NCBI GenBank assembly: GCA_017511265.1
Contig: JAFWKV010000001.1
Coordinates: forward strand, 553-64,552
Source of the DNA: Clostridia bacterium
Lineage (GTDB): Bacteria; Bacillota; Clostridia; TANB77; CAG-508
Reading direction: 5' to 3'
DNA length: 64,000 nucleotides
The position numbers were made by a program, and so were the translations under genes. Below, piece after piece: positions 10,620-63,340 of this stretch. The notes under the pieces were generated by a model. It ran no database searches. It was not told the DNA's origin and saw only the letters and a program-made list of their open reading frames with translations. Each line of letters starts with the position of its first letter. Position 1 is the stretch's first letter.

Positions 10620-10823
10620 AACAAAATTAAAGGCATAAATCTAGCAGGAGATGTATATATATAAATAAAGAAAATCTGCGTAAGCGACCAAACGAGCGTA
10701 GCGAGTGCGATTGGAGCAAGCTACAGACCAGCAATTTTCAGTTCGGAGCTTGCGACACACAAAGATTTTCGTATTTATATATATACATCTCCTGCTAGAT
10801 TTATGCTTTTAATTTTGTTTTTA
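10617..10823. repeat. ~200-bp palindromic element spanning stop codon to stop codon between the xer gene and dpaB
   Basis: The arms TAAAACAAAATTAAAGGCATAAATCTAGCAGGAGATGTATATATATAAATA and its near-perfect complement enclose a G+C-richer ~80-bp core. The core contains AACGAGCGTAGCGAGTG, a string shared with the 13.2-kb element. Confidence 0.8.
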
Positions 10824-13141: not shown

Positions 13142-13347
13142 TCAAGTTATAATATAAAAAATTTATGCGACTCCTTGTTCATTACATTCGGATAGAAATT
13201 GTATTGCTAAAAAATGAGCCTCTTTCACTTAGTCCTCACTCGCTACTCTCGTTCGACGTGAACATCCCTCATTTTTGTAGCTTTACAATTTCTAATCCTC
13301 ATTTCAATCAAGCGTCGTCTTCTAAATTCTTTTATATTATAACTTGA
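13142..13347. repeat. Imperfect palindromic interspersed element between the two ackA genes
   Basis: Arms are TCAAGTTATAATATAAAA...AGAAATTGT...AAAATGAG. Strings of 18-19 nt (AAAATGAGGGATGTTCAC and AAAATGAGCCTCTTTCACT) recur, inverted, in the core of the 32.5-kb element. Confidence 0.75.
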
Positions 13348-13369: not shown

Positions 13370-14569
13370 CTATTTATTTTTTATAATTTCTAGAGTTTCT
13401 TTTGCAATTTGGAGTTCCTCGTTTGTAGGAACAACCCAAACTTTAATTTTAGAATCAGGCGTTGAAAGTTCTGCTTCTTCTCCTTTAGTTTGCTTATTTA
13501 ATTCTTGATCAATTTTTACTCCAAATACTTTTAAGTGCTTACATATTTGTTTTCTGTCTAAAACTGCTTTTTCGCCTACTCCAGCGGTAAATGTAATAAC
13601 ATCAATTCCACCCATTGCAACTGCACATTTTGCAATGTTTTGTGCTACTGTGTAATCAAATACATCTAAAGCAAGTGTTGCATGTGCTCCACCTGAAATG
13701 CTGTCTAATTCCACATCTCTAAAATCTAAAGATATTTGTGAAATTCCATAAACTCCAGATTTTTTATTTAGGATATTATCCATTTCTTCTGGTGTAGCAT
13801 TTAGCTTTTTCATTAAATATGTAACTACCGATGGATCTAAATCTCCACTTCTTGACCCCATGCAGAGTCCTCCAAGGGGTGTAAGACCCATTGTTGTTTC
13901 AACACATTCACCATTTTTAATTGCTGCTAAACTTGCTCCCTGTCCTAAATGACAATTTACAATTTTTAAGTCTTTAATATCTTTATTCATAAGTTCAGCA
14001 ACTCTGTTAGCAACATATTTATGAGATGTACCATGAAATCCATATTTTCTTATATGATATTTTTCATAATATTCATAAGGTATTGGGTATAAATATCTTT
14101 CTACAGGTATTGTTTTATGAAATCCTGTATCAAAAACAGTTACCATTTTTACGTCTGGAGCTACTTTTTGGCAGGCTCTTATTCCTGCGACGGCAGATTT
14201 ATTATGTAATGGCGCTAATTCTGCAACTCTTTCAATTTCATTAATTACATCTTCTGTTACTAAACAAGCATCTCTTAAGTTTTCTCCACCATGAACTATT
14301 CTATGCGCAATTCCGCCTAATTCGTCCATATTTTTTAGCACTCCATAATGCTTGTTCAATAATCTTGATAGTATAAATTTAATGGCTTTTTCGTGATTTG
14401 ATACTTGATGCTCAAAATGATGTTTAACATTATTTACTTTGTGTGTCAAAAATGAGTTAGGTTGTCCAATTCTTTCAAAGTTGCCTTTTACAAGCATTTT
14501 TTCTGTTTCCATATCTATTACTTGATATTTCATAGAAGAACTGCCTGAATTTATTACTAATATTTTCAT
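13370..14569 (-). CDS. ackA: Acetate kinase (paralog 2, diverged)
   Basis: Same family motifs as paralog 1. By eye it is about half to two-thirds identical to paralog 1. Confidence 0.9.
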   Translation of the reverse strand: MKILVINSGSSSMKYQVIDMETEKMLVKGNFERIGQPNSFLTHKVNNVKHHFEHQVSNHEKAIKFILSRLLNKHYGVLKNMDELGGIAHRIVHGGENLRDACLVTEDVINEIERVAELAPLHNKSAVAGIRACQKVAPDVKMVTVFDTGFHKTIPVERYLYPIPYEYYEKYHIRKYGFHGTSHKYVANRVAELMNKDIKDLKIVNCHLGQGASLAAIKNGECVETTMGLTPLGGLCMGSRSGDLDPSVVTYLMKKLNATPEEMDNILNKKSGVYGISQISLDFRDVELDSISGGAHATLALDVFDYTVAQNIAKCAVAMGGIDVITFTAGVGEKAVLDRKQICKHLKVFGVKIDQELNKQTKGEEAELSTPDSKIKVWVVPTNEELQIAKETLEIIKNK

Positions 14570-17535: not shown

Positions 17536-17690
17536 TGCTGTATTTTGGGACGGGGCGACAGGTGATGCCTTGGGGACGGAGGAAAAAGTATCACCTGTTT
17601 AAAATGTTAAATCTAGTTAAAATATAAACAGGTGATACTTTTTCCTCCGTCCCCAAAGCATCACCTGTCGCCCCGTCCCAAAATACAGCA
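17536..17690. repeat. 155-bp modular palindrome (GGGAC-module family)
   Basis: The left arm TGCTGTATTTTGGGACGGGGCGACAGGTGATGCCTTGGGGACGGAGGAAAAAGTATCACCTGTTTA has a near-perfect complement on the right. It starts 2 nt after the dgt-like stop. Confidence 0.9.
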
Positions 17691-19906: not shown

Positions 19907-19939
19907 GTGATACTTTTTCCTCCGTCCCCAAAGTATCAC
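19907..19939. repeat. Solitary GGGGACGGAGG-loop hairpin
   Basis: A 10-bp stem GTGATACTTT/AAAGTATCAC encloses the 13-nt TTCCTCCGTCCCC. The same unit occurs at 52537, 52603, 17.6 kb and 41.1 kb. Confidence 0.75.
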
Positions 19940-22043: not shown

Positions 22044-22066
22044 ATACTACAACAATTCCTATAAAT

Positions 22067-22249
22067 GAAGATGACAATATATAATAATTATTTTCTTTCC
22101 TCGGCTTGCTTCGTGGATTACAAATTCTAAAAGAAAAATCAAAACTTTACCCGAAGACAGGACCCTTTTTGATTTTTCTTTTAGAATTTGTACATTCCAC
22201 TCCACGGCACATTCATCATTTCAAAATTTTTTATATATTATCATCTTCG
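22067..22249. mobile_element. MITE-like element, copy 1 (~183 bp, terminal inverted repeats)
   Basis: TIRs GAAGATGACAATATATAA and TTATATATTATCATCTTCG enclose a hairpin core GGATTACAAATTCTAAAAGAAAAATCAAAA...TTTTGATTTTTCTTTTAGAATTTGTA. Confidence 0.75.
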
Positions 22250-22761
22250 TCTGTAGGAGTTGTTGTATTGTTAGTAGCTTCTTCCTTAACTTCTTCAGCA
22301 CTTTCAGCTTTTTCATAAGCTTCTTCTACTTCGTCCACTATTTCAACTTCTTTAACAGGTTCTTCAGCTTCATCATTATTTTCATCTTCTTCAATTTCTT
22401 CTTGTTTGTCACCACAATTTGGACAGTATTTTGAAGTTTTATCTATTTTTTCATAGCAATTAGAGCACTGTTTTAAGTCTTTTAAATTTAAAATTTCGTT
22501 TAATATATTTTCAATCTCATCAGACAAAACGTCAACTTTTGTACATTCTTCTTCCAATTCTTCTTTTATGTTGATAGTATCTTGTAGCAAATGTTTTTCA
22601 TACACCTTTTTACCTATTTGCTTATATAAATCTTCTATATCAGATTTATCCTCATTCATTTTCATTCTTAATTTAGCCTCTTTTGCAAGTTTACCAGTCT
22701 TCTCAGCAGTAAACTTATAAGTTTCACTAGCCTTTTTTCCAATCTTATCAAAAAAATCCAT
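22231..22761 (-). CDS. Zinc-ribbon domain protein with an acidic C-terminal tail
   Basis: CSNCYEKIDKTSKYCPNCG zinc ribbon. The last six codons and the stop (DEDDNI*) lie inside the MITE terminal repeat. Confidence 0.7.
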   Translation of the reverse strand: MDFFDKIGKKASETYKFTAEKTGKLAKEAKLRMKMNEDKSDIEDLYKQIGKKVYEKHLLQDTINIKEELEEECTKVDVLSDEIENILNEILNLKDLKQCSNCYEKIDKTSKYCPNCGDKQEEIEEDENNDEAEEPVKEVEIVDEVEEAYEKAESAEEVKEEATNNTTTPTDEDDNI

Positions 22762-22858: not shown

Positions 22859-23039
22859 AAGATGACAATATATAAAAAATTTTGAAGAGACGAATGCGCC
22901 GTGGAGTGGAATGTACAAATTCTTAAGAAAAATCAAAAAGGGTCCTGTCTTCGGGTAAAGTTTTGATTTTTCTATTAGAATTTGTAATCCACGAAGCAAG
23001 CCGAGGAAAGAAAAAATTTATTATATATTATCATCTTCG
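22859..23039. mobile_element. MITE-like element, copy 2 (core inverted relative to copy 1)
   Basis: The reverse complement matches the copy 1 core at about 95% by eye, with the same TIRs. The spurious ORFs starting MLRGLQIL on opposite strands reveal the pair. Confidence 0.75.
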
Positions 23040-32049: not shown

Positions 32050-32415
32050 ATGCTGTTTTTTTCACCCAAAATGCTTCACATCAAAGAGGTAAAATTACCT
32101 CGTACCCCTCAGGAGTTTGCGAAAGCTCTTATCCAGTGGGGTACAGACGCCTCACATGAAAATTCCTCTCTTCTTTTAGATCTTGATACATTAAGGTTCA
32201 TGAGAGAATGGGCTCTTAGCTACTATGATGACTCGTGTCTCTGCTGTGTTCTACGCGAGTGTGTTGTCATTGGTAGTTATATGCCTTATAACGGAAAAAA
32301 TGTTGTTGTGCTGGATGAACTTCTATTAACATATCCAGATCATCAGCTCTTGTACAACAAGAAGCCAGGAAAGATTTCTTCTATAATGGGCTTGTACGTT
32401 GCTCATCTCATCTAA
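32050..32415 (+). CDS. Hypothetical protein with atypical (higher G+C) composition
   Basis: Clean 121-aa ORF. A sampled 60-nt stretch (32101..32160) is about 53% G+C, against an AT-rich background. It has its own extended -10 promoter and terminator. Confidence 0.55.
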   Translation: MLFFSPKMLHIKEVKLPRTPQEFAKALIQWGTDASHENSSLLLDLDTLRFMREWALSYYDDSCLCCVLRECVVIGSYMPYNGKNVVVLDELLLTYPDHQLLYNKKPGKISSIMGLYVAHLI

Positions 32416-32437: not shown

Positions 32438-32466
32438 AGGGACGCAAACTTGCGTCCCTACTTTTA
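32438..32466 (+). terminator. Rho-independent terminator of the 121-aa gene
   Basis: Stem AGGGACGCAA/TTGCGTCCCT followed by ACTTTTAT. Confidence 0.65.
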
Positions 32467-32860
32467 TGCTGTCTTTTGGGACGGGGCAAAAAAACATCAG
32501 CCTGCTGTCAATGGGGACGTAGCAATTTGACAACCTGCCTTTGGCTAAGTTCCCTTAATTTTTTATATTAGCGCTTGATTGGAATAAGCATTAGAAATTG
32601 TTTAGCTAGAAAATGAGGGATGTTCACGGTACTCGTGTTGAATTATGAATTATAGAAAAATTTGATTTTTCTATAATGAAGAATGATACGCGAGGGACTG
32701 AGTGAAAGAGGCTCATTTTCTAGCCTTACAATTTCTTTGCGAATGAAATGAACAAGCTAATATAAAAAATTAAGGGAACTTAGCCAAAGGCAGGTTGTCA
32801 AATTGCTACATCCCCATTGACAGCAGGTGATGTTTTTTTGCCCCGTCCCAAAAGACAGCA
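32467..32860. repeat. 394-bp nested (Russian-doll) palindrome of the GGGAC-module family
   Basis: The ~105-bp arms (TGCTGTCTTTTGGGACGGGGCAAAAAAACATCAGCCTGCTGTCAATGGGGACGTAGCAATTTGACAACCTGCCTTTGGCTAAGTTCCCTTAATTTTTTATATTAGC) differ at 2 positions. The core equals the 13.2-kb element family, with a further small palindrome inserted at its centre. The right end abuts the mutS stop. Confidence 0.9.
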
Positions 32861-35473
32861 TCACTTCATTTTTTCTTTCATTCTAACCAATGTGTTTAGT
32901 GCATCAATTGGAGTTAGTGCATTTAAATCAACTTGGTCAATCTCGTGAGCTATTTCAGCAAGTTTATAATTAAACATATCAAATTGTCCTTCAACCTGCT
33001 TCTTATCTTCTTTTTCCTGTTTTTTATCTCTTAAAATACTTTTTCTTTCAAGTGTTCTTAAAATCTCATTTGCCTTTTGAGTAACATCTTTAGGTACTCC
33101 TGCAAGTTTGGCAACATGAATTCCATAACTTTCATCTGTACCACCTTTAAGAATTTTTCTTAAAAATATTATATCTTCTCCCTTTTCCTTAACAGCTATT
33201 TGATAATTTTTTACACCTTCTAATCTATTTTCCAGTTCAGTTAATTCATGATAATGTGTTGCAAATAGTGTTTTTGCTCCACATTTTTCTTTGTTTGCAA
33301 TAAAGTCTGCAACAGCCCATGCAATTGAAAGTCCATCATATGTTGATGTTCCTCTCCCTATTTCATCAAGAATTACTAAGCTATTTGATGTGGCTTCCTT
33401 TAGTATTGATGCAACTTCCATCATTTCTACCATAAATGTACTTTGTCCCATACTCAAGTCATCTGATGCTCCAACCCTAGTAAATATTTTATCTACTGCA
33501 CCTATTTTAGCACTTGATGCTGGTACAAAGCTTCCAACTTGTGCCATTAGTGTAATTAACGCTACTTGCCTCATATATGTGGATTTTCCAGCCATATTAG
33601 GTCCTGTAATTATTGCCAATCTATTTTCATCTTTATCCAAATATGTATCATTTTCAACAAAGCTTCCTGTTGGTATCATCTTCTCAATTACAGGATGCCT
33701 ACCATCTTTAATGTCTATTATTCCATTTTGCTTTACCTCTGGCATACAATAATTCATATCTTCTGCAACTTGTGCAAATGATGTTAATACATCTAGTGTT
33801 GCAACAATTGTACTTGAAGTTTGAAGTCTTTTTATATTTTTAGATATTTCTTCTCTAACCTCTGTAAATGCGTTATATTCTAAGTTTACAACCTTTTCTT
33901 CAGCACCTAATACTTTGTTTTCTATTTCTTTTAATTCTTCTGTTATATATCTTTCAGCATTTGTAAGTGTTTGCTTTCTTATAAATCTAGCTGGAACTTG
34001 TGATAAAAATGATTTAGTAACCTCTATATAATACCCAAATACTTTATTAAAGCCTACTTTCAAGTTCTTTATTCCTGTTTTTTCACGTTCTTCCGCTTCT
34101 ATTTTTATAATCCAATTCTTCCCATCTGTAGTTGCTCTTTTTAATTCATCTATTTCTTCGTCATAGCCAAGCTTTATAATTCCACCTTCTTTTATGCTGA
34201 TAGGTGGTTCATCAACTATTGCTTTTTCAATTAAGTCATGCACATCTTGTAACTCGTCTAAATTTTCATGCAATTCTTTCAAATAATCACTTTTACAGTT
34301 ACTTAATACATTTTTCACAGATGGCAATTTTGCAAGTGAACTTTTAAGCGAAATCATATCTCTTGCATTGGCATTACCATAAGCCATTTTACCTGCCAAA
34401 CGCTCAATATCATAAACTTTTTTTAAGCTATCTATAATATCTCCTCTGATCATAATTTCTTCTTTTAGTTCTTTTACAGCACTTAAACGTTTATTAATTT
34501 CAATAACGTCTATTAGTGGGTCATTAAGCCATCTTCTTAGCATACGTCCGCCCATAGAAGTTGAAGTTTTATCTAATACCCAAAGTAAAGTTCCTTTTTT
34601 GCTCTTATCTCTTAGTTTTTCAGTGATTTCTAGGTTTCTTCTTGCATTTATATCTAAAGACATATATTTTGATATATTGTAAATTGTAATTTTGTTTATA
34701 TGTTCTAGGCTTGTTTTTTGAGTTTGTTTTAAGTATTCTAAAAGTGCATTAATTGAAGCTATAGCAATTGATTTTTCTTCTATATTTTCTATTAGATTAT
34801 TAGCTGGGTCTTGTACAGTGAATTTTTCTTTTAATTTGCTACAATCATCTGTAAAAAAAGTATCTCCAAATTTTGTAACATATATATCAAATCTTTCCTT
34901 TATTTTATCCATTTCTTCTCTGCAATCATACATCATACTGTTTACTACAAGCTCTGCTGGATTAAATCTTGCAATTTCATCTAGTACCATTGCAAAATTA
35001 TTTGTTTGCTTAACTTCACTGCTGTAGAATTCACCTGTTGAAACATCACACAAGCTTATTCCAAAGTATATTCCAGTTTTAAAAATTGACATTATATAGT
35101 TGTTTTTTCTTTCTTCTAGCATATTTGATTCTACAATAGTTCCTGGTGTAACTACTCTTATAACATCTCTTTCCACCATTCCCTTTGTTGTTTTTGGGTC
35201 AGTTAATTGCTCACATATTGCAACTTTATAACCTTTTGCTATAAGTTTTGCAATATAGCTTTCTGCAGCATGGTGTGGCACTCCACACATTGGTGCACGT
35301 TCTGCTTGCCCACAATCTCTACCTGTTAAAGTTATTTCTAATTCTCTTGATGCTGTTAGTGCATCATCAAAAAACATTTCGTAGAAGTCACCTAATCTAT
35401 AAAATAATATACAATCTTCATATTGTTTTTTTGTTTCAAAATATTTTTGCATCATTGGTGAATATTCTGCCAT
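32861..35473 (-). CDS. mutS: DNA mismatch repair protein MutS
   Basis: 870 aa, with the MutS N-terminus TPMMQKY and Walker A GPNMAGKST. Confidence 0.95.
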   Translation of the reverse strand: MAEYSPMMQKYFETKKQYEDCILFYRLGDFYEMFFDDALTASRELEITLTGRDCGQAERAPMCGVPHHAAESYIAKLIAKGYKVAICEQLTDPKTTKGMVERDVIRVVTPGTIVESNMLEERKNNYIMSIFKTGIYFGISLCDVSTGEFYSSEVKQTNNFAMVLDEIARFNPAELVVNSMMYDCREEMDKIKERFDIYVTKFGDTFFTDDCSKLKEKFTVQDPANNLIENIEEKSIAIASINALLEYLKQTQKTSLEHINKITIYNISKYMSLDINARRNLEITEKLRDKSKKGTLLWVLDKTSTSMGGRMLRRWLNDPLIDVIEINKRLSAVKELKEEIMIRGDIIDSLKKVYDIERLAGKMAYGNANARDMISLKSSLAKLPSVKNVLSNCKSDYLKELHENLDELQDVHDLIEKAIVDEPPISIKEGGIIKLGYDEEIDELKRATTDGKNWIIKIEAEEREKTGIKNLKVGFNKVFGYYIEVTKSFLSQVPARFIRKQTLTNAERYITEELKEIENKVLGAEEKVVNLEYNAFTEVREEISKNIKRLQTSSTIVATLDVLTSFAQVAEDMNYCMPEVKQNGIIDIKDGRHPVIEKMIPTGSFVENDTYLDKDENRLAIITGPNMAGKSTYMRQVALITLMAQVGSFVPASSAKIGAVDKIFTRVGASDDLSMGQSTFMVEMMEVASILKEATSNSLVILDEIGRGTSTYDGLSIAWAVADFIANKEKCGAKTLFATHYHELTELENRLEGVKNYQIAVKEKGEDIIFLRKILKGGTDESYGIHVAKLAGVPKDVTQKANEILRTLERKSILRDKKQEKEDKKQVEGQFDMFNYKLAEIAHEIDQVDLNALTPIDALNTLVRMKEKMK

Positions 35474-35492: not shown

Positions 35493-36356
35493 CTATCTTA
35501 TTTTTGTATATTCTTCTTCTAATTCTTCTAATTGCCTCATTTCTTCTGGTTTTGCAGCTCTTGCTGTAAATTGTTCTTTTAATTTTTTTATTCTTTCCGC
35601 TGCTGTTTTTCTTACATCCGCTTCTTTTATTCTTCTATATTCTTCTAGTGCCATTCTTGCTGTAAAATATGTGGTATTTGGAATTTCACTTGAATATACT
35701 ATTTCTGGCTTGTTTAATTCTTTTCCTCTTACATAAACTTCTACTGTACATAAGCCAGATTTTTCAATTGCATCAACTGTTGAAGGAACACCACTATATG
35801 CTTGATTATGGTGTGAAGTTGAAACTAGTCTTCCAAAACCTATTTTATCAATTTGTTCTTGATATCTTTCATGTAATGAAATTAAGCTTTCTAATTTTGG
35901 AACAGCAAGAACTCTTACAGTTACTGAAAATCCCTTCTCTTTCATTTCTTTAATTCTATTTATTATCCTGTCGTTTTTTAATGTTCCTTCAAAAATAAAA
36001 TTGTAGCCTTCATCTATTGATTTTCTTAATATTTGGCCAGTCCATGTTCCTGCATCTTGTTCTACAATGCTTACATATTCTGTTGGATATTTTTTAGCCA
36101 TTTCTATTGCTTTTGGATGATATGGTTTATATTCGTCTGTTGTTATTATAATAACTTGTTTTCCTTGGCTCTCTAATTCATTTTTAGAATATGTAATAAC
36201 TGCGCCTTTTCCAGCTCCTGATTGTGCTCCAACAATTATTGCTATTGGCTCATTACTTGTAAGCATCCCATTAAACACTTCATCTTCTATTTTTCTATAT
36301 ATTGTTTGATGTTCTTCTGGCGTTAATTTGTATTTATCTCTTATATTTTGTTCCAC
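35493..36356 (-). CDS. Zeta-toxin-family P-loop kinase-like protein
   Basis: The layout resembles zeta/PezT: P-loop GAQSGAGKG about 45 aa from the N-terminus, and a helical Lys/Glu-rich C-terminal tail. The Walker A ends GKG instead of GKT/S. Confidence 0.7.
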   Translation of the reverse strand: MEQNIRDKYKLTPEEHQTIYRKIEDEVFNGMLTSNEPIAIIVGAQSGAGKGAVITYSKNELESQGKQVIIITTDEYKPYHPKAIEMAKKYPTEYVSIVEQDAGTWTGQILRKSIDEGYNFIFEGTLKNDRIINRIKEMKEKGFSVTVRVLAVPKLESLISLHERYQEQIDKIGFGRLVSTSHHNQAYSGVPSTVDAIEKSGLCTVEVYVRGKELNKPEIVYSSEIPNTTYFTARMALEEYRRIKEADVRKTAAERIKKLKEQFTARAAKPEEMRQLEELEEEYTKIR

Positions 36357-39721: not shown

Positions 39722-41053
39722 ATGGAAAAGATGAAAATTCAAAAATACGAAACTAATTTTAAAAGAAACCTTTTTTGGAAAGAAAGCACATTAAACACAA
39801 AACAATACACAGAAAAACAAGAAAATAAAGTAATAAATGTTTATCCTGTCATATCTTATCAAGAAATAATAGGCTTTGGTGGAGCTTTTACAGAAGCGGC
39901 AGGCTATGCTTATAGTAAGCTAAGTGATTCAAAAAAAGTTGAACTTATAGATGACTATTTTTCACAAAATGGCTTAAACTATTCAATTGGTAGATTACCT
40001 GTCGGGAGTTGTGACTTTTCTCTTAATTCTTATTCATATTCAAAAAGACCAGATTTGTCTGATTTTAGTATAGAAAGAGATAGAAAATATCTCTTACCTT
40101 TTCTGAAATCTTCACTAGAAAAAAGGCAATTGAAATTATTAGCTTCTCCATGGAGCCCTCCAAGCTTTATGAAATCCAATAAAATGCTAAAATTAGGTGG
40201 TAAGCTTTTAAATAAATATTATCAAACTTGGGCAGATTATTTGGTAAAGTATATACAAGCCTATGAATCTGAAAATGTACCTATAAAATACATAACAGTT
40301 CAAAATGAAGCAAATGCAACTCAAATATGGGAATCTTGTTTGTACTCAGCTGAAGAAGAAGTAAATTTTGCAACAAATTATCTATATTATGGTTTTGTAC
40401 ATAATAATATTGATACTAAAATACTGATATGGGATCATAACAAAGAAAAACTTTTTACAAGAGCTCTATCAGAACTAAGCACAGATTCTGCAAAGCAAGC
40501 TATTTCTGGATTTGCATTTCATTGGTATTCTGGTGACCATTTTGAAAATATTAAATTGACACATGATGCTTTTCCTGATAAGCTTTTATTTCATACAGAA
40601 GGCTGTACAGGCTTTTCTCATTTTAGAAAAGAAGATGAAGTTCAAAATGGCGAAATATATGCTCATGATATTTTAGGTGATTTAAATGCCGGTATAAATG
40701 CCTTTATAGACTGGAATTTAATACTTGATCATAAAGGAGGGCCAAATCATAAGTTAAATTACTGCAATAGTCCAATAATGCTAAATGATGCTAATTCTGA
40801 TTATGTTAAAAATTTAACGTATTATTATATTGGGCATTTTAGTAAATTTATTAAACCTGGTAGCAAACGTATTGCTTTTAGTAGATATGATGATAGAATT
40901 GAAGTAACTGCTTTTAAGAATACTGATGGTTCTATTGCTGTTGTTCTTCTGAATCGTAATAATTGGAACTATGAATATAATTTATGTATAAATGATTTTG
41001 TTATTCATGATAATTTAGATAGTCATGCTATTGTTACTTTGGTAATTAAGTAA
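39722..41053 (+). CDS. Glycoside hydrolase family 30 (glucosylceramidase-like)
   Basis: GFGGAFTEAA, ASPWSPPSFMK and ITVQNE motifs. Confidence 0.85.
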   Translation: MEKMKIQKYETNFKRNLFWKESTLNTKQYTEKQENKVINVYPVISYQEIIGFGGAFTEAAGYAYSKLSDSKKVELIDDYFSQNGLNYSIGRLPVGSCDFSLNSYSYSKRPDLSDFSIERDRKYLLPFLKSSLEKRQLKLLASPWSPPSFMKSNKMLKLGGKLLNKYYQTWADYLVKYIQAYESENVPIKYITVQNEANATQIWESCLYSAEEEVNFATNYLYYGFVHNNIDTKILIWDHNKEKLFTRALSELSTDSAKQAISGFAFHWYSGDHFENIKLTHDAFPDKLLFHTEGCTGFSHFRKEDEVQNGEIYAHDILGDLNAGINAFIDWNLILDHKGGPNHKLNYCNSPIMLNDANSDYVKNLTYYYIGHFSKFIKPGSKRIAFSRYDDRIEVTAFKNTDGSIAVVLLNRNNWNYEYNLCINDFVIHDNLDSHAIVTLVIK

Positions 41054-41214
41054 GTGATGCCTTGGGGACGGAGGAAAAAGAAGCGATGCCTTGGGGACGG
41101 AGGAAAAAGTATCACCTGTTTATATTATAGCTAGAATTTACAGTTTAAACAGGTGATACTTTTTCCTCCGTCCCCAAGGCATCGCTTCTTTTTCCTCCGT
41201 CCCCAAGGCATCAC
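41054..41214. repeat. 161-bp modular palindrome (two GTGATGCCTTGGGGACGGAGG-type modules per arm)
   Basis: It begins the base after the GH30 TAA, and its last base is the first base of the convergent gene's stop codon. It shares its inner module with the 17.5-kb palindrome. Confidence 0.9.
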
Positions 41215-41408
41215 TAATTATGGTCGTCAAATAATAATTTAATTCCCCATAATCCTGACACACCTACAAGTGAATAAACAATCCTACTAAGTATTGACAT
41301 ATCTCCAAACAAAGTTGCAACTAAGTCAAATTTAAATAGTCCTATCAATCCCCAGTTGATTGCACCAATTATAATTAAAGTCAAAGCTGTTTTATCTATA
41401 ATTTTCAT
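41214..41408 (-). CDS. DUF378-family small membrane protein
   Basis: IIGAINWGLIGLFKFDLVATLFG signature. The start at MKIIDK follows RBS GGAGGTG. Confidence 0.75.
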   Translation of the reverse strand: MKIIDKTALTLIIIGAINWGLIGLFKFDLVATLFGDMSILSRIVYSLVGVSGLWGIKLLFDDHN

Positions 41409-44137: not shown

Positions 44138-44204
44138 AAGTTATCCTCCATAACTTTTTGGGACGCGTTCCAAAAAGATCCGCGTCCATAAAAGTTTCTA
44201 TTAT

Positions 44205-47200
44205 TTACTGTCCAAAAGCTGAAAAGAATGTACTCAATGCATTTGCTGCATTATTTAGTAATCCGTTATTAATTTGTGTCAGGTAAGTTGTGTAATATGT
44301 TGTTCCATTAATTGTTTCTGTATCATCTTTTCTTTCATAGTTATCTTCTACCTCTGCGATATTTCCATCTACACTACCCAAAACGCCCTTCACAATTCCA
44401 TCATAGAATTTAATTGTTCCAGTATTTATTATACCATAGGTTGTTCCTCTTATTTCAGGTGAGGACATATTCACTGTTCCATCTTTTTTTCCTATTTTAA
44501 CTGTTGAATTAGCTGAATTTGTAATAGCAGCATTTGTAATACTACCTTGAGTATCTAAAATTATTGTTCCATCTTCTATTGTTACGGTTCCACCATTAAA
44601 GTTTTGAATAGTTCCTCTAGGCTCACCTGATGGTGCATTTCCTGTTGTAGTAGAACTTATAGTTGAATTACCTCTTATTTCTACAGTACCTCCATTGTTG
44701 TATACTGCTTGTCTTTCTCCTGTTGATATCATAGTTACTCCATCAATTATTACTGTTCCGCCTGCATAATTGTCAATTGTAGAAGATAATTGTACTACTG
44801 AATTTATAGTTCCATTTGTAAGTTTAATTGTCCCATAATTGTCTATAACTTTACTACTACCATTATTACTTAAAGTATTATTTTGTAGATTTATTATTAT
44901 ATTTTGTCCTGCAGATGTTTTAACATATTCTGTAGAATCCGTTAATATATTAATTGTTACCTCAGTACCATCTTTTGGTACTTGATTAACTGCCTCTTGT
45001 AATGTATTATAAGATACATCATTAATTTCTGCAGTGTCAACTACAGTCCAGTGAGCATAATATGTTACATCTTCATTTATTATTGTATCTTCTGTTATTG
45101 ATTCTCCACCTTCTTTTGATGTATACCATCCATCGCATTGGAATCCTGCTCTGGTTGCTTTTGGTAAGTCTCCTAAAGCAGTTCCACTTTCAACTAGTTT
45201 TGTTCCATTAATTATTTTACCACCATTTGGGTCGAAAGTAACTGTATATGTACTTTTCCAATGTGCATAAAATGTTATATCTCCATCTATTATTGTATTT
45301 TCTGTTATTTTGATTCCACCTTCTGCTGATGTGTACCATCCGTCAAGCATATATCCTGATTTTGTTGCTGTTGGCAATGTTCCTACAGGGTCACCTGGTT
45401 TTACTTTCCTTGTTCCATTAGCTATTGTGCCTCCATTTGGATCAAATGTTACAGTATCTTTTTCTTTTAGATAAACTACGTCATATGTATCACTATCTAT
45501 AGTTTCTGTTTTGTGTGCTATTACATAGTCATCTTCTATATTTTTTAAATGTTGGTCATTATCAGTTGCACTTGTTATTCCCTTTATAACACCATCATAA
45601 AAACTTAAATCTACAGTACTGCTTAAGCCATACTTTTTGCCTTGTATTATAGGAGTATTCATAACCATATTTCCATCTTTTGTTCCTATTGTCAGTGTTG
45701 TTTTACTATTATATAAGCCAGTTCCTGCACTAGATTCTGACCTTATTGTTCCTCCAGTTATTGTCATTTTGCTTTCATTTGATACTGCTATTCCATTATT
45801 TGTTCCATTAGTTGATACTATTGTTCCTCCAGATATTGTAACTGTTCCATTAGTATTATGAACTGTTCCTCTATTTTTGTTAGTTTCTACTGTTGCTTTA
45901 GAACTTAAATATGCATTTCCTGTTATTTCTATGGTTCCTCCTTCATTATATATTGCTTGTCTAGTTCCTGTAGTTATAATGCTTCCGCCACTAATTGTCA
46001 AATTGGCTTTTGATTTATTGTTAATAGCTCCTTGTGTTGTTGATGAGGTTATTGTTCCATTTGAAATTGCAAGAGTTCCAAAGTTATTAATTACAGGATT
46101 TACTCCATTATTACTTATAGTAAAATCTTGTAAATCAAATACAATATTTTTACCTGCAGCTACTTCAAGTTTTTCACTTGTATCTCTTAATAAAATAATT
46201 GTTTTTTGAGGTCCATTAGCAGTTACTGCATTTATAGCAGCTTGTAAAGTACTATAAAATGTCCCCTCAATTTCTGCTTTTTCTGTTTTCCATTGTGCAT
46301 ATAATGTTATATTTCCTAAATTATTTACTTCTTGTTGATATGTATATCTTGTTCCACTTCCATCAGGTTCGGTATTCCATCCCGCAAATGAATAATTTGT
46401 TTTTTGGAATGTATTTTTCCTTAATTTTTCTGTTTTATTGAACGGAATTGTTTGTGGTTCCATTGTTCCTGTTGCACTTGCATCATTTTTATCAAATGTT
46501 ATTGTATATCCTCCATTTGTAAAGTATCCTGGGTTTGATGTGCCCTCATCTATGTGAGCATATGTATAACTTACATTAGATGCATCATATACTGTGCCTG
46601 CTCCACCGACAATGTTAGTTGCACCAATAAACATATCATTACCATTTGCTGAATCCGTTATACCTGTTGTTACAAAATTTGATGATGCATAAATTGTTAT
46701 TAAATCTGTACAACCCTGAAACATATTATTAATTTTTGTTACATTTGTAGTATTAAAATTACTTAAATTTAAAGTCGTTATTCCACTACAACTATAAAAC
46801 ATATATTCCATAGTTGTTACACTGCCAGTATCAAATCCACCTAACTCTATGGTCGTTAAACTGCTACAGTTTTTTAACATTGCTTGCATATTTGTTACCA
46901 TTGATGTATTAAAGCTACTTATATTCAGACTTGTTAAGCCACTACATCCATCAAATATATTTGACATATTTGTTACTTGTGTTGTATCAAAGTTGCTTAA
47001 GTCTAACCCAGTTAGACCACTGCAACCTTGATACATACCCTGCATATTTGTTACACTTGAAGTATTAAAATGATTTACATTTATACTTGTTAAGCTACTA
47101 CAGTTTTGAAACATATTTCCCAAATTTGTAACATTGCTTGTATCAAAATTGCTTACATTTAGTGTTCCAACATTTTGGCAATTTGAAAACATATAGTGCA

Positions 47201-50200
47201 TATCGTTTACATTACTTGTATCAATTTCACTTACATCCAATGTGCTTACATTTTTACAATTATAAAATAGAAATTCCATATCAGTTACTTTGCTTGTGTT
47301 AAGGTTCGATAAGTTTAACGTAGCATTAATACTATTTCCTATATATGCAAATAAATATGCTGAGCTTGAGTTAGCAAATACTCCACCATTTTGTCCTATT
47401 ACTACATCATAGCCATTTGTGTTATCACCAGTTGCCCATAGTAGCACTCCTCCATTACTTTGCTGTGATACGTCCCAACATGTTGTATTATCTACTGTAT
47501 GGCCATCTATTGATGTTGCAAATGATATGCTCTTTATTTTGTCTCTTGTTATGCTTGTACCTAAGAATGTTCCATCTGCTGTAGCAGTTGTGTTTGCTTT
47601 AAGATTTGCTTCTTGCCAATGTGCATAATAGGTTACATCCTGGTTTCCCATTATAGTATTTTCTGATATCTGTTCTCCATTTTCTGTGAACCATCCTAAA
47701 AATTGGTAACCTGTTTTTCTTGCTGTTGGTAATGTTCCAATTCTTGTATCTTCAGCTACTGTTCTTGTATCTTCGCTTGCTGTTCCACCATTTGCATTAA
47801 ATGTTACAGTATAATCTTTGTAGAAGTATTTTGATGTTATTGTTATGCCATCTCCAAGTTTTGATATTGGAACCGCAACTACAGGACGAATTCTTTTACT
47901 ATTTCCATAATAGTTATAACTAACGCTTCCTTTAATTTCAACAAACATTTCATTGCTTTTGTCATTAGCTGAAGGAGAAGATAGCCACCATGCTCCAGTA
48001 CTTGGAGAATATATTGCTTCATCCATTTCAGATGAATATCCTAATCCACTAACATAAAAACTATAGTTTTCTACCTCACCACCTGATGTATTTTTTCCTA
48101 TTTTATATCCTGTTGCATTTTCTTCTACACTACAATCTAATTGTATTTCATGTGTTGCATTATATGATGCAACAAACATTTCTAATGAAGGTGCTCCTAC
48201 TGCCCAAAGTGCATAGTCTGCTTTATAATCATTCCAATTTGTTGTGTCTAATAAAGTTTGCAAACCTTGTATATTACTATTTATATTTGTTCCATCTGAT
48301 TTTAATTCCCATGATGAGTTTTGTGTATATTTTTTGTTTATCTTTTCACCTACTGATGATATTGTAGACGTTCCAAATCCAGGTAAATTGTTTAGAGCAT
48401 TATTTCCAATACTATCAGATATCAAGTATGCATAATTATTATCTGCATAGAACAATCTCCATATTCTATTATCGACTGTGCTATTTCCTGTAGTATAACC
48501 TGTTACTATTTTACCAAAATCACTTGAATATGTTGAATTTACTGTACCTAGCTCTAAATATCCATTTGAAAAGTATCCTGGATTTGATGTACCCCCATCT
48601 ATGTGTGCATATGTGTGGTTTATATGAGATGCATCATATACTGTGCCTGCTCCTCCTACAAGTTTAGTTGAACCAGTAAACATATCTGTACTATTTTCTA
48701 CTGCTGTCGTAACAAAGCTTGATGATGCATATATTGTTGCCAAATTAGAGCAATTAGCAAACATAGTATTCATACTTTTAACTTTTGATGTGTTAAAGCT
48801 ACTTACATCTATTTCACTTAAGGCATAATCATATGCAAACATTCCTTCCATTGTAGTAACATTTGATGTATCAAGTCCACTTACATTCAAACTTGGTAGT
48901 GTTCTGCAATTATAGAACAGATAGCTCATATTTGTCACATTGCTTGTATCAAAGTTTGTTAAATCTATTGTGGCATCTATACTATTTCCTATATATGCAA
49001 ACAAATATGCTGAGCTAGCGTTTGCTACAACACCACCATTCTGTCCGATTACTACTTCATATCCATTTGTGTCATCTCCAGTTGCCCATAGTAAAACACC
49101 ACCATTACTCTGTTTTGAGACATCCCAACATGTTGTATTATCTACTGTGTGTCCATCTATTGAATTTGTAAACGATACTTTCTTTATTTTGTCTCTAGTT
49201 ATGCTTGTTCCAAGGAATGCTCCATTTTCTGTTGCTGTTGTATTTGCTTTTAGGTATGTTCCCCATTGTGCATATAATGTTACTGTTCCATTTTCTGTTG
49301 CAGTTAAATTGATTACTTCTTGTTTATCTAAATAAGTTGTTCCGCTTCCATCAGATGCAGTATTCCAGCATGCAAAAGGATAGTTTGGATGTTGGAATGT
49401 ATTTTGGCTTAAATTCTGTGCTGTATTATATGTAAATGTTTGTGCTTCCATTTCTCCTGTTGCATTTTCGTCATTTTTGTCAAAGTTAACTGTATATTTA
49501 AACGCTTCCCATTGTGCATACAGTGTATGTGCTCCTGTTTGTGTTACAGTTGTATCTGCTGTGATATAGTTAGGATTTTCTCCTGGATTTTGTTCTATTG
49601 TCCAACCTTTAAAGCTATAATTTTCTCTTGTTGGAATTGGTAAGGTTCCATATTTGCTATCATATTCTACTTCTATTTCACTTGGTTCTACTGTTATTCC
49701 GTCTCCTGCATTAAATGTTACTTTAAATTTATTTACTTCCCATTGTGCATACAGTGTATGTGCTTCTGTTTGTGTTACAGTTGTGTCTGCTGTGATATAG
49801 TTAGGATTTTCTCCTGGCTCTTGTTCTATTGTCCAACCTTTAAATCTATAATGTTCTCTTGTTGGGATTGGTAAGGTTCCATATTTTTTACCATATTCTA
49901 CTTCTATTTCACTTGGGTTTATTGTTATTCCGGTTCCTGCATTAAGCGTTACTAAATATTTATTTACCATATTTATAAGAATTGCTATGGTTTTGCCTTT
50001 ATTTTCTTCCTTTACAGTTAAAGTTATTGTATTAGGTGTATATTTATTAGCAACTACAGTAAGAACATTTCCGTTTATCTCTGCATGTATAAATTCATCC
50101 TCATAATTTTTTGAAAAATTGCTACTTTGTGCGGTATTTGCTATTGTATACTCACCTGAATCTTCTCCCATTATGTTTACAGTTCCAGTTTGCCCTTTAG

Positions 50201-51408: not shown

Positions 51409-51436
51409 CTGTCTTTTGGGATGGGGCAAAAGACAG
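51409..51436. repeat. Solitary GGGAC-family hairpin
   Basis: CTGTCTTTTG-GGATGGGG-CAAAAGACAG, 4 nt beyond the rpe stop. No U-tract follows in the rpe direction. Confidence 0.65.
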
Positions 51437-52115: not shown

Positions 52116-52145
52116 GATGTTTTTTGGGACGGGGCAAAAAACATC
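52116..52145. repeat. Solitary GGGAC-family hairpin
   Basis: GATGTTTTTTG-GGACGGGG-CAAAAAACATC. It has the same loop as the unit at 51409 but a different stem word. Confidence 0.65.
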
Positions 52146-52536: not shown

Positions 52537-52633
52537 TGATACTTTTTCCTCCGTCCCCAAAGTATCAGCTTTTGCCTAATTTTTCCATTTTTTATTTCTA
52601 TGTGATACTTTTTCCTCCGTCCCCAAAGTATCA
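52537..52633. repeat. Tandem pair of GGGGACGGAGG-loop hairpins downstream of rsgA
   Basis: TGATACTTT-TTCCTCCGTCCCC-AAAGTATCA occurs at 52537..52567 and 52603..52633, within a ~65-bp tandem duplication. Confidence 0.8.
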
Positions 52634-56758: not shown

Positions 56759-56822
56759 GGAAAACTTTTTTAAAACGTCCCCAAAAGTTTTCCACAGTCC
56801 ACCCTGTCCCCAAAAGTTTTCC
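56759..56822. repeat. GGGAC-family hairpin plus half-repeat, overlapping the cotJC stop
   Basis: GGAAAACTTTT-TTAAAACGTCCCC-AAAAGTTTTCC is followed by a second GTCCCCAAAAGTTTTCC. The last base is the first base of the cotJC stop codon. Confidence 0.75.
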
Positions 56823-63070: not shown

Positions 63071-63304
63071 AAAAGTGATGCCTTAGCTGTCTTTTGGGAC
63101 GGTGTTGTCAATGGGGAAGGAGCTGTCAATGGGGACGTGCTTAAATGAAAACGTGTCAATGGGGACGGGTTTAAATGACACACATTAAAAATGTGTGTCA
63201 TTTAAGCCCGTCCCCATTGACACGTTTTCATTTAAGCACGTCCCCATTGACAGCTCCTTCCCCATTGACAACACCGTCCCAAAAGACAGCTAAGGCATCA
63301 CTTT
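63071..63304. repeat. 234-bp near-perfect palindrome with three TGTCAATGGGGA(A/C)G modules per arm
   Basis: The ~115-bp arms differ at one position, and the centre is CACATTAAAAATGTG. The outer shell reuses GTGATGCC and CTGTCTTTTGGGACGG words seen elsewhere. Confidence 0.9.
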
Positions 63305-63340
63305 TCCTTAAGTTATTATTCTCTGATATAATTTCTCTTT

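Follow-up and report, generated by a model that had tools for sequence, protein, structure and literature searches.

A near-complete 396-nt palindrome between mutS and a convergent gene in a Clostridia bacterium, with hairpin modules resembling REP-type repeats

Introduction

Among the repeats with which the locus described here can be compared, REPs are the closest; they lie 3′ of genes, between unidirectional or convergent ORFs, and form tagged superfamilies that extend across phyla (PMC3733652). Their doublets fold into hairpins in which one configuration predominates, are flanked by A/T runs and give long palindromes as by-products (PMC3337134), and RAYT transposases mobilise both REPs and REPINs (Bertels & Rainey, PMC3116915, PMC3337134; Nunvar et al., PMC2817692). 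The GTAG and CGTC superfamilies occur mostly as head-to-head dimers 3′ of ORFs, the CGTC REPs being without a known transposase and carrying an unpaired foot tag, a CCA tail and a stem of 8-9 bp, with AT at its start, around a loop of 4-5 nt; the survey that defined them covered 8 phyla, Firmicutes and Actinobacteria not included (PMC3733652). In BIMEs, REPs are regularly spaced in alternating orientation (PMC2817692), and such clusters are tied to strain-specific breakpoints (PMC1525189). In addition, several insertion sequences, namely IS1397, ISKpn1, IS621, ISPsy8 and ISPpu9/10, insert at a fixed point in REP palindromes (PMC1525189).

The locus analysed here lies in a stretch of 64,000 nucleotides from a Clostridia bacterium, which we call the window. 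In its modular build, though with no sequence relation, it also resembles pneumococcal BOX and Neisseria Correia/NEMIS elements, which are modular, vary in the number of their sub-units, form long hairpins in transcripts and have terminator or promoter side-effects; Correia elements are, moreover, processed by RNase III, have defined terminal inverted repeats and duplicate a TA. Finally, in the process of quasi-palindrome correction reported by Ripley and by Lovett and colleagues, template switching is said to perfect imperfect inverted repeats and to be able to extend them outward, reportedly for short quasi-palindromes in experimental systems.

Results

The intergenic region between mutS (− strand) and a convergent 121-aa ORF (+ strand) contains, 3′ of mutS, a near-complete palindrome of 396 nt (32466-32861) whose last base, 32861, also opens the mutS stop codon (TCA on +, i.e. 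TGA on −). A preceding sequence-only reading had described a 394-bp palindrome with near-identical arms, and this is what we find: the outer arms (32466-32572 and 32756-32861, 107 nt each) are 98% identical and differ by one indel, an extra G at 32500, and one mismatch, C32518 versus A32810, which gives GGGGACG on one side and GGGGATG on the other. As a single strand, the region folds into one 396-nt hairpin with an energy of −274 kcal/mol as RNA (z = −31) and −164 kcal/mol as DNA (z = −29). The relatives of its MutS belong to uncultured gut Clostridia MAGs, e.g. Clostridium sp. CAG:492/575 and Ca. Merdicola, and in comparison with relatives the palindrome locus is a synteny break 3′ of mutS. 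The window as a whole has a GC content of 29% and contains a class A RNase P RNA; an origin in Fusobacterium, to which these two traits had pointed, was rejected in view of the MutS relatives. The parts of the locus, and the second copy of its inner element, are as follows.

32466..32861, no strand: whole quasi-palindrome, 396 nt (sequence, repeat scan, folding)
32466..32499, + strand: outer module 1, left arm, G-form, ATGCTGTCTTTT-GGGACGGGGC-AAAAAAACATCA (sequence comparison)
32501..32532, + strand: outer module 2, left arm, CCTGC-TGTCAA-TGGGGACGTAGCAAT-TTGACA, a hairpin with a GGGGACG loop (sequence)
32533..32572, + strand: unique 40-nt arm segment ACCTGCCTTTGGCTAAGTTCCCTTAATTTTTTATATTAGC, with its mirror copy at 32756-32795 (sequence)
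32573..32755, − strand: inner element, an imperfect palindrome and inverted copy of 13174-13313 (sequence comparison)
32629..32694, no strand: centre of the inner element, 66 nt here versus 21 nt in the 13-kb copy (sequence comparison)
32796..32827, − strand: outer module 2, right arm, GGGGATG variant with 1 mismatch relative to the left arm (sequence)
32828..32861, − strand: outer module 1, right arm, exact reverse complement of 32466-32499 (sequence)
13174..13313, + strand: second copy of the inner element (about 140 nt), between two ackA paralogues, without the mini-palindrome (sequence comparison)

Each arm is thus made of two hairpin modules with a GGGAC/GGGGACG core, as had been correctly named before, plus the unique 40-nt segment, for which searches of the window and of relatives' loci amounting to about 1.6 Mb gave no further copy. 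The modules inside one arm stand in direct orientation (GG..CC, GGGG..CCCC), and in the right arm the G-form of module 1, on the − strand, follows directly after the mutS stop. Module 1 had been suspected to be a chimera of the left half of a solitary hairpin at 51409 and the right half of another at 52116, and at the level of sequence it is: its arm positions 4-26 match the hairpin 51409-51431 at 96%, and positions 9-28 match the hairpin 52122-52141 at 100%.

The inner element was likewise recognised as an inverted copy of the repeat in the ackA spacer, with matches on two sides, 32573-32628 to 13313-13257 at 88% and 32695-32756 to 13235-13174 at 89%. Its own arms 32593-32617 and 32712-32736 are 88% complementary; overall, the inner arms are 70-88% identical as compared with the 98% of the outer ones. 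The longer centre of the copy at mutS holds a perfect mini-palindrome, ATTATAGAAAAAT-TTG-ATTTTTCTATAAT (32649-32677; core 32649-32661 / 32665-32677 with a 3-nt loop), of which no other copy was found in the window or in the relatives' loci and which, by its position, looks like an apical insertion into the inner element. Its proposed kinship with a 22-kb MITE proved to be weak, as it is based on a single 12-mer, TTTGATTTTTCT, with 5 occurrences versus 0.19 expected, 4 of the 5 being the 22-kb element itself. The nesting as such stands, in that the structure is a mosaic of unrelated repeat families arranged concentrically.

The GGGAC modules are interspersed and not unique to the palindrome, as had also been anticipated: about 25 of them lie at 9 intergenic sites of the window, and they recur in related species. 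The string GGGGACG occurs 15 times in the window versus 0.23 expected, a number reached by 0 of 100 shuffles. The other sites are these.

17536..17690, no strand: sister composite palindrome between convergent genes; one GGGACGGGGC and one GGGGACGGAGG module per arm
41053..41215, no strand: sister composite palindrome that begins at the stop of a GH30 gene; two GGGGACGGAGG modules per arm
63071..63305, no strand: sister composite palindrome with 116-nt arms, 99% complementary, and a 3-nt loop; four GGGAC/GGGGA modules in each arm
19907..19939, − strand: solitary hairpin GTGATACTTT-GGGGACGGAGGAA-AAAGTATCAC, just 3′ of the RNase P RNA gene
51409..51436, + strand: solitary hairpin CTGTCTTTT-GGGATGGGGC-AAAAGACAG, donor type for the left half of module 1
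52116..52145, + strand: solitary hairpin GATGTTTTTT-GGGACGGGGC-AAAAAACATC, donor type for the right half of module 1
52537..52633, − strand: two solitary GGGGACGGAGGAA hairpins that point the same way (52537-52567 and 52603-52633), 3′ of rsgA
56759..56793, − strand: solitary hairpin GGAAAACTTTT-GGGGACGTTTTAA-AAAAGTTTTCC

GGGGACG is enriched 33-40-fold in the window; in 1.5 Mb from 80 related Clostridia species its enrichment is 8-9-fold, and across these it is the only 7-mer not of the codon type at the top of the list. Flanking stems with at least 6 bp of perfect pairing are present at 25% of GGGACG sites, versus 1.4% of random positions and about 1% for permuted hexamers. In an alignment of sequences that had been pre-selected for having stems, covariation is seen at 10 of 10 stem pairs and pairing in 96% of cells; the invariant columns, GGGAC(G), fall within the loops, which measure 9-15 nt, while the stems vary. 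Most occurrences of GGGGACG/GGGACGG among the relatives are intergenic (111 of 130, with 19 coding), and for 80 of 110 the G-form lies 3′ of a co-directional gene, the median distance to the stop being 21.5 nt, with most sites about 0-20 nt past the stop codon. Doublet clusters have the G-form first (G..C 33 versus C..G 3), and a T-rich tail after the G-form (22/51) is more frequent than an A-rich head before it (9/51). A DNA-uptake sequence is an unlikely reading of the motif because 85% of the sites are intergenic and the motif resides in loops, not in stems. That GGGAC is a general trait of the terminators of this clade could be ruled out, as it is present in only 18 of 450 perfect hairpins.

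Related strains do show other forms of the locus, as had been expected of a structure that is not one invariant block. At the mutS stop site the window carries different modules from two related loci, L094 and L095, with 97% and 96% MutS identity, respectively, and no module is present in L096 and L097 at 94-95%; in a further one, L004, an identical outer arm stands over a diverged inner element. L095 has the inner element, the arm architecture and the second module in common with the window and differs in the outermost module, which points to turnover at the outer, stop-codon-proximal edge. Its module 2 keeps the loop GGGGAYGTAGCAA with compensating changes in the stem (TGTCAA/TTGACA in the window vs CTGCCA/TGGCAG). 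In the rpmE-miaB spacer, L095 and L134 have doublets with different stems, L014 has a solo hairpin and the window has none; neither an empty site nor a target duplication was found in this spacer, which is too diverged for insertion borders. Copy number is also uneven across close relatives, from 15 per 64 kb in the window to almost none in L132 and L096. Near-identical strains showed no polymorphism, and exact-protein look-ups for strain polymorphism at two of the sister palindromes returned only identical or truncated contigs.

The single canonical terminator in the neighbourhood of the palindrome lies just beyond its left arm.

32438..32459, no strand: bidirectional intrinsic terminator hairpin AGGGACGCAA-ACTT-GCGTCCCT (terminator scan, both strands)

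It has a G+C-rich stem that includes GGGACG, a short loop and a U-tract, i.e. a T-rich tail, on both strands; it ends the 121-aa gene and is the first canonical terminator for mutS transcripts, past the palindrome. With no canonical mutS terminator before 32459-32438, the mutS 3′ UTR should contain the whole 396-nt hairpin. The modules themselves have A/T-rich stems with loops of 9-15 nt, and only 15 of 51 are followed by a run of four or more T; a role as terminators would not seem to be general, given that only about one-third of the solitary hairpins have a convincing U-tract. A-run and T-run flanks are present in high-GC relatives of the repeat family.

The GGGGACG core and its loop variants are also found in Collinsella and, on metagenome contigs of 28-72% GC, in at least 40 sequence families and 43 distinct contexts. 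Four loop variants, GGGGACGGAGG, GGGGACGGGGC, GGGGACGTTCC and GGGGACGGGT, are common to the Clostridia clade, Collinsella aerofaciens and high-GC environmental bacteria. The rules that these groups share are a core in the loop or at the outer edge, a 5′ G-form and sites 0-15 nt past stops, and both the stop-proximal position and the G-form-first rule hold in the low-GC as well as the high-GC set. The raw number of metagenome hits is weakened as proof of conservation across phyla, since in a smaller viral collection three permuted control patterns had 1 hit each, the same as the real pattern; the case for such conservation is accordingly based on the 43 contexts, on a motif position that does not change and on the common loop variants. 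In IMG/VR the doublet pattern had 1 hit. A phage origin was rejected, the 23 single IMG/VR matches of the 15-mer TTGGGGACGGAGGAA being without hairpin context and attributable to chance, as was plasmid carriage of the high-GC subfamilies, for which BLAST against PLSDB gave only chance matches to the variable centre.

In Rfam scans at gathering thresholds the window matched RNase P, one tRNA and nothing else, and 15 related loci had no match; scans by E-value gave only sub-threshold, generic matches of long hairpins resembling miRNA precursors, so a known RNA family was ruled out. Literature searches by sequence strings returned only primers and human sequences and no paper that matches the repeat; CGTCCCC or GGGGACG is likewise absent as a string from the supplementary files of PMC3733652. 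The neighbouring small ORFs had no informative match in PHROGs, NCBIfam or Pfam. For the GGGGACG core of the outer modules, present in distant bacteria, no previous description was found.

A Pfam scan of 46 window ORFs revealed no RAYT/Y1 or other dedicated transposase and screening 1.5 Mb of relatives' loci with a crude HUH-Y motif gave no credible match, these searches together covering roughly 3% of the source genome and some 1% of each relative's. When ORFs within 2.5 kb of 120 metagenome doublets were clustered, no recurrent RAYT-like neighbour emerged, only orthologous loci of a single species, and the genes between adjacent doublets are housekeeping genes. The ends of the palindrome show no direct repeat that would mark a target-site duplication.

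Discussion

On the evidence presented here we lean towards regarding the structure as a cluster of non-coding repeats, compound in build and of the REP/REPIN/BIME kind, that occupies the 3′ intergenic region of two convergent genes. The sequence-only reading could assign it to no described repeat family; this is right as far as the tag is concerned, GGGGACG being neither GTAG nor CGTC, but not with respect to the architecture, which is of the well-described REP/REPIN/BIME type. Like REPs and REPINs, the modules are short (20-40 nt) extragenic imperfect palindromes in many copies (about 25 in the 64 kb of the window), form mostly inverted doublets, capable of folding into a single hairpin and with one of the two configurations dominant (33 versus 3), and are sited after genes and rarely between divergent ones; their A/T-run flanks suggest terminator co-option, and long palindromes occur as by-products. 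Where a REP has a conserved stem with an unpaired GT(A/G)G at its 5′ foot, however, the stems here vary within one genome, no GTAG stands at the hairpin feet and what is conserved is a core of 7-8 nt that occupies the loop or the outer edge. The covered sequence shows no RAYT gene, and the hosts, low-GC Clostridia and Actinomycetota, are not among the phyla reported for tagged REPs.

With the GTAG and CGTC superfamilies (Di Nocera et al. 2013, PMC3733652) the modules share the pattern of unrelated palindrome families in several phyla under one short invariant tag. The complement of the core, CGTCCCC, even starts with CGTC, as in the CGTC-tagged REPs, but in contrast to these the core is enclosed by the stem and the loops are 9-15 nt long. 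The resemblance to enterobacterial BIMEs lies in mosaic clusters of hairpin repeats and other short motifs in 3′ intergenic space and in the location of the palindrome at a synteny break 3′ of mutS; unlike in BIMEs, all modules of an arm point the same way and the block as a whole is mirrored, with a foreign repeat family at the centre. The nearest precedent for the apical mini-palindrome is provided by the REP-targeting insertion sequences, which are, however, autonomous, encode a transposase and make short target duplications, whereas the inserts here are non-coding, 50-180 nt long and without duplication.

How could such a cluster have come about? The unit would be a hairpin of about 30 nt with a freely varying A/T-rich stem and a conserved 5′-(G)GGGACG(G)-3′ that lies in the loop or, in doublets, at the outer edge; these hairpins would be seeded immediately past stop codons, usually as inverted pairs whose 5′ arm has the G-rich form. 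At the mutS locus, two modules per arm would have been built around an older, unrelated imperfect-palindrome repeat, that with the other copy between the ackA genes, which itself appears to have gained a small perfect palindrome at its apex. Perceivably, modules turn over at the stop-codon-proximal edge by a copy mechanism, recombination or template switching within the common core could produce chimeric modules, and intrastrand template switching, as in quasi-palindrome correction, may copy one arm onto the other. The last step would account for the outermost layer being the most perfect one. At the level of RNA, each arm would present its G-form hairpins first to the incoming transcript, and the hairpin in the mutS 3′ UTR might serve as a 3′-end barrier or terminator aid and would be a probable substrate of RNase III. 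Symmetrisation by template switching agrees with the greater perfection of the outer arms relative to the core; at this locus both this process and transcription across the palindrome are purely inferred.

An alternative that we consider unlikely is that the hairpins are host-selected sites for a conserved factor, acting as 3′-end or terminator RNA or as protein-bound single-stranded DNA, and that the palindrome is a bidirectional version of them which arose with no mobility. The conservation of the loop and the covariation of stems across species and even phyla would be expected under such selection, as would the stop-proximal position and G-form-first arrangement common to low-GC and high-GC sets and the presence of such hairpins behind rpmE in three lineages, each time with other stems. 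These observations have to be set against the very uneven copy number among close relatives, the gains and losses between strains at 94-97% MutS identity and the many copies without a U-tract; furthermore, no candidate binding protein is known and there is no Rfam match.

Somewhat more doubtful still is successive nested transposition, whereby an element of the ackA type would have hit the apex of the outer palindrome and the mini-palindrome the apex of that element, each layer targeting hairpin loops. Insertion at a fixed point in REP palindromes has been documented (PMC1525189), the inner element does sit at the centre of the outer arms, and the extra 45-52 nt that are absent from the 13-kb copy lie exactly at the inner-element apex. 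The earlier proposal that elements insert at hairpin apices therefore fits the innermost mini-palindrome, but it fits only that: for the outer layers the order of ages is wrong, the enclosing arms being far more alike than the enclosed ones, and L095, which keeps the inner element and the second module under another outermost module, indicates that the outside changed last. Neither target duplications nor a transposase were found, nor another copy of the mini-palindrome or the 40-nt segment.

A single MITE with terminal inverted repeats of about 107 bp that moves as one 394-bp unit is very unlikely. Its near-perfect inverted repeats, small size, intergenic location and position at a synteny breakpoint would suit this idea, but the window and about 1.6 Mb of relatives' sequence contain neither the unit nor its 40-nt segment a second time, the ends bear no target-site duplication, a related IS did not turn up, the outer and inner parts vary independently among strains, and the arms are concatenations of modules that also occur alone. 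Finally, an assembly or amplification artefact, i.e. a fold-back chimera, is exceedingly improbable: several further public contigs do end within the palindrome, as contigs frequently seem to, but the 446-nt intergenic region is spanned identically, with 0-1 differences, by at least 5 contigs from different samples and two assemblers, and the centre of the palindrome is asymmetric and homologous to a second locus.

Read as a cluster of the REP/REPIN/BIME kind, the palindrome is an extreme but explicable outcome of REP-like repeat dynamics, and it offers a natural case in which long near-perfect palindromes are built and tolerated beside essential genes. Such palindromes also matter in practice as a source of contig breaks in metagenome assemblies.

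We argue that the more valuable lead is the core of the modules, a 7-8-nt loop motif that is kept while stems are free to change, after stop codons and in unrelated phyla, which points to a sequence- and structure-specific activity on hairpins at gene ends. Tentatively, and as a possibility rather than as our expectation, we suggest that the GGGGACG(G) hairpins form a third tagged superfamily of palindromic repeats beside GTAG and CGTC, extending across Bacillota, Actinomycetota and high-GC environmental bacteria. If true, this would imply a conserved recogniser, for example a hairpin-specific nuclease or transposase or a 3′-end RNA-binding factor, and the same recognising activity could drive the accretion seen in this Russian-doll palindrome. 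Given that the CGTC REPs are still without a mobilising enzyme, a further tag in the culturable gut bacterium Collinsella aerofaciens would make the question experimentally testable.

Results

The palindrome and its layers

The window (29% G+C) belongs to a lineage of uncultured gut Clostridia whose closest species-level relatives have MutS proteins 81% identical to its own. The nested palindrome that the sequence-only reading had described lies at the 3' end of mutS, among the following features.

Features of the mutS 3' region, and other large palindromes with GGGGACG modules
32050-32415, + strand: 121-aa ORF, no family match
32438-32459: ordinary bidirectional terminator hairpin, six bases upstream of the palindrome
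32466-32861: palindrome, between the 121-aa ORF and mutS
32466-32572 and 32756-32861: its outer arms, 107 nt each
32861-35473, - strand: mutS
17536-17690; 41053-41215; 63071-63305: further large palindromes with GGGGACG modules
Module 1, in each arm: ATGCTGTCTTTT-GGGACGGGGC-AAAAAAACATCA
Module 2, in each arm: CCTGC-TGTCAA-TGGGGACGTAGCAAT-TTGACA

The observation itself is confirmed and its interpretation is partly supported. An extra G at 32500 and one C/T change in the second GGGGACG motif are the only differences between the arms, and the whole segment, the final base of which is the first base of the mutS stop codon, folds into a single 396-nt hairpin (RNA free energy -274 kcal/mol; z = -31 versus shuffles). 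Since the 446-nt spacer is spanned with 0-1 differences by at least five public contigs from different samples, and several others end within it, the palindrome is real and a practical obstacle for assemblers.

Besides its two modules, which are hairpin repeats with a GGGAC/GGGGACG core, each arm holds a 40-nt segment of which no further copy was found in the window or the fetched loci. Module 1 is indeed chimeric, as had been suspected: its left half is that of the solitary hairpin at 51409, its right half that of the one at 52116, and the join falls within the loop common to both, GGGAYGGGGC. As had also been proposed, the interior (32573-32755) repeats in inverted orientation the element that separates the ackA genes, with two blocks matching at 88-89% identity; the centre measures 66 nt here versus 21 nt in the ackA-spacer copy, and the surplus includes a perfect 13+13-nt palindrome with a 3-nt loop. 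The suggested kinship of the central mini-palindrome with the MITE-like repeat near 22 kb has a single shared 12-mer as its basis, and we consider it unproven.

The ackA paralogues are two acetate kinase genes in tandem (11922-13115 and 13370-14569), adjoining pta and separated by a 224-bp palindromic repeat, the core of which recurs inside 32466-32861. Elsewhere, two 94% identical copies of a ~165-nt element, inverted to each other (22061-22230 and 22876-23038) and each with its own 26-nt perfect inverted repeat, TACAAATTCTAAAAGAAAAATCAAAA, flank a 176-aa zinc-ribbon ORF (22231-22761); the arrangement resembles a pair of MITEs or a composite element enclosing a single gene. A 204-bp palindrome at 10618-10821 (50-nt arms, 98% complementary) begins exactly at the stop of a XerC/XerD-like tyrosine recombinase gene (9636-10619) and finishes at the stop of a convergent flavoprotein gene, and a 45-nt piece from its centre recurs twice in a related locus, L036. 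GAAGCGG occurs 11 times in the window versus 0.77 expected (7 on the - strand, 4 on the + strand; e.g. 18650, 24228, 26346, 34093); it is identical to the Chi sequence reported for Staphylococcus aureus, and so may serve this lineage as its AddAB Chi site.

A family of hairpins with a GGGGACG core

The modules are interspersed, a point the sequence-only reading had singled out for checking: GGGGACG occurs 15 times in the window versus 0.23 expected, at nine intergenic sites including three more large palindromes and six solitary hairpins, and copies are also found in related species. Across 1.5 Mb of loci fetched around mutS from 80 of these species, the most over-represented 7-mers are codon-like except for GGGGACG and GGGACGG (8-9-fold there, 33-40-fold in the window). 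Hairpin stems vary between copies and between species, the 5' part of the loop, (G)GGGAC(G), being constant, and 25% of GGGACG sites are flanked, in the right geometry, by a perfect stem of 6 bp or more, versus 1.4% of random positions and ~1% of permuted hexamers. Aligned without gaps, 13 hairpins whose loops are 13 nt long have double changes at 10/10 stem pairs and 96% of cells paired; as these hairpins were selected for having stems, the alignment illustrates the covariation pattern and does not prove it. The continuum reaches perfect hairpins of the type TTTTGGGAC-N3-GTCCCAAAA. That GGGAC is a general property of hairpins in this clade is ruled out by its presence in only 18 of 450.

Intergenic positions account for 111 of 130 sites. 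The G-form (the core read 5' to 3' on the given strand) stands 3' of a gene read in the same direction in 80 of 110 cases, at a median stop-to-motif distance of 21.5 nt, and in clusters of mixed orientation it precedes its reverse complement, the C-form, 33 times, the reverse order occurring 3 times. Since the two strands of such a palindrome read alike, transcripts coming in from the left and from the right both encounter the G-form hairpins first. T-rich tails after the G-form are commoner than A-rich heads before it, and only about a third of the hairpins have the look of a proper intrinsic terminator.

The palindrome at 63071-63305, between two co-directional genes, is more extreme than the one at mutS: 235 bp and almost perfect, it has 116-nt arms (99% complementary), a loop of only 3 nt and four GGGAC/GGGGA units per arm, three of them being TGTCAATGGGGA. 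Hairpins of the GGGAC type also immediately flank a 2368-aa ORF (44205-51311), at 44160 and 51409. The window further holds a large serine recombinase gene (57439-59031).

Comparison of strains

In strains with identical flanking proteins the palindrome is identical, with L004 as the sole exception; there the right outer arm matches at 100% across 125 nt, and the inner element differs at 9 of ~50 positions and is nearer to the ackA copy than is that of the window. Among further relatives the site is not invariant, a question that the sequence-only reading had raised. In L094 (97% MutS identity to the window), the same TGA stop is followed directly by two GGGGACGGAGG modules. In L095 (96%), the stop is followed by a single GGGACGGAGG module, then by a second module with the loop of module 2 and a compensated stem (CTGCCA/TGGCAG versus TGTCAA/TTGACA), a spacer of similar length and a diverged inner-element copy. 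L096, L097, L132 and L134 (92-95%) have different downstream genes and at most one small hairpin. By this comparison, the outermost module is younger than both the inner element and the overall arrangement.

The rpmE-miaB spacer gives the same picture: L095 and L134 have doublets (inverted pairs) there whose stems are unlike, L014 has a lone hairpin, and the window has no such hairpin. Module copy number also differs sharply among close relatives. Judged from these sequences, the mutS 3' end is a synteny breakpoint, and gene content downstream of mutS is different in nearly every relative. On the other side, a zeta-toxin family gene lies between a miaB-like gene and mutS in the window (35493-36356) and is missing from that position in L094, L095, L132 and L134 (93-97%), so that mutS is variable on both sides. 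Many public contigs of the window's species end inside or at the edge of GGGGACG palindromes (L003, L004, L090-L093, L094, L095, L121-L124, L126-L131); these repeats thus fragment short-read assemblies.

Metagenomes and Collinsella

A scan of a metagenome collection for GGGGACGGAGG-N45-75-CCTCCGTCCCC returned at least 120 loci. Since three permuted control patterns equalled the real pattern in match number in a smaller viral collection (one each), the raw count is not evidence by itself. The matches listed come from gut, soil, peat, marine and reactor samples, mostly on contigs of 55-72% G+C, and fall into 43 distinct sequence contexts, in every one of which the motif lies at, or within ~10 nt of, the outer edge of a palindrome. 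Among these same matches the motif has A-rich sequence before it and T-rich sequence after it, lies at a median of 13 nt past the stop where an ORF ends nearby, and has ordinary housekeeping genes around and between its doublets.

A subfamily on contigs of 66-68% GC (L142, L150, L153, L157, L160, L163, L164 and about 20 more) has the order stop codon, A5-7, GGGGACGGAGGGGATTAAGTCG, a variable, compensated stem top, the reverse complement and T5-7; its 22-nt base is conserved, its apex varies freely, and the whole resembles a bidirectional terminator cassette.

Another subfamily is assigned to Collinsella aerofaciens (Actinomycetota) because a 1049-aa protein encoded beside it matches named Collinsella proteins at 98-100% identity. 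Its loci also carry hairpins with the loops GGGGACGGGGCAG, TGGGGACGGGTTGAT and TGGGGACGTTCCTTT; these loop variants are shared with the window (GGGACGGGGC) and, among the Clostridia relatives, with L010 (GGGACGGGTCT) and L023/L024 (GGGACGTTCCT). Contigs of this type have both doublets and solitary hairpins with the window's GGGGACGG loop variants (L183 5043-5109, L183 ~6278, L181 ~12246, L235 ~389).

Neither Rfam models nor plasmid records matched the motif hairpins, and a literature search by sequence string returned no paper matching the motif. A 2013 survey of tagged REPs includes neither the GGGGACG motif nor the phyla Firmicutes and Actinobacteria (PMC3733652).

Discussion

The nested palindrome is most likely a compound repeat cluster of the REP/REPIN/BIME type. 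Such repeats are extragenic hairpins located after genes, form inverted doublets with one configuration favoured, have A/T-run flanks that mimic terminators, are tied to strain-specific breakpoints and yield long palindromes as by-products (PMC3337134, PMC3733652, PMC2817692, PMC1525189); the GGGGACG repeats resemble them in position, polarized doublets, flanks, breakpoints and long palindromes alike. What is new is that these REP-like compound repeats have features that set them apart from described REPs: whereas a described tag, GTAG or CGTC, stands unpaired at the base of a stem that is itself conserved, the GGGGACG core sits inside a variable one, and whereas BIME modules alternate in orientation, those of the palindrome are direct within one arm. 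No Y1/RAYT or other dedicated transposase was found in the window, in a crude screen of the 1.5 Mb from relatives or near the 120 listed metagenome doublets, sequences that cover a small fraction of each genome.

The sequence-only reading had also proposed that elements insert into the apex of existing hairpins. The innermost mini-palindrome agrees with that proposal. The outer layers speak rather for turnover at their outer edge, since the outer arms are the most perfect part and the outermost module differs between strains. No target-site duplication was seen at the palindrome, nor a second copy of the entire unit in the window or in the relatives' loci. The chimeric module 1 would be the expected product of recombination or template switching within a shared core, and the mirror-perfect outer arms would be expected from intrastrand template switching (quasi-palindrome correction).

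Ahead of the palindrome lies a terminator that serves the 121-aa gene. Because mutS has none before 32459-32438, its mRNA should, as predicted from the sequence, hold the entire 396-nt hairpin in the 3' UTR.

Taken together, we regard the palindrome itself as of moderate interest, and the lead as the family of GGGGACG-core hairpins and whatever recognises that core, for which Collinsella aerofaciens, a culturable gut actinobacterium, offers a practical organism in which to probe the function of the motif.
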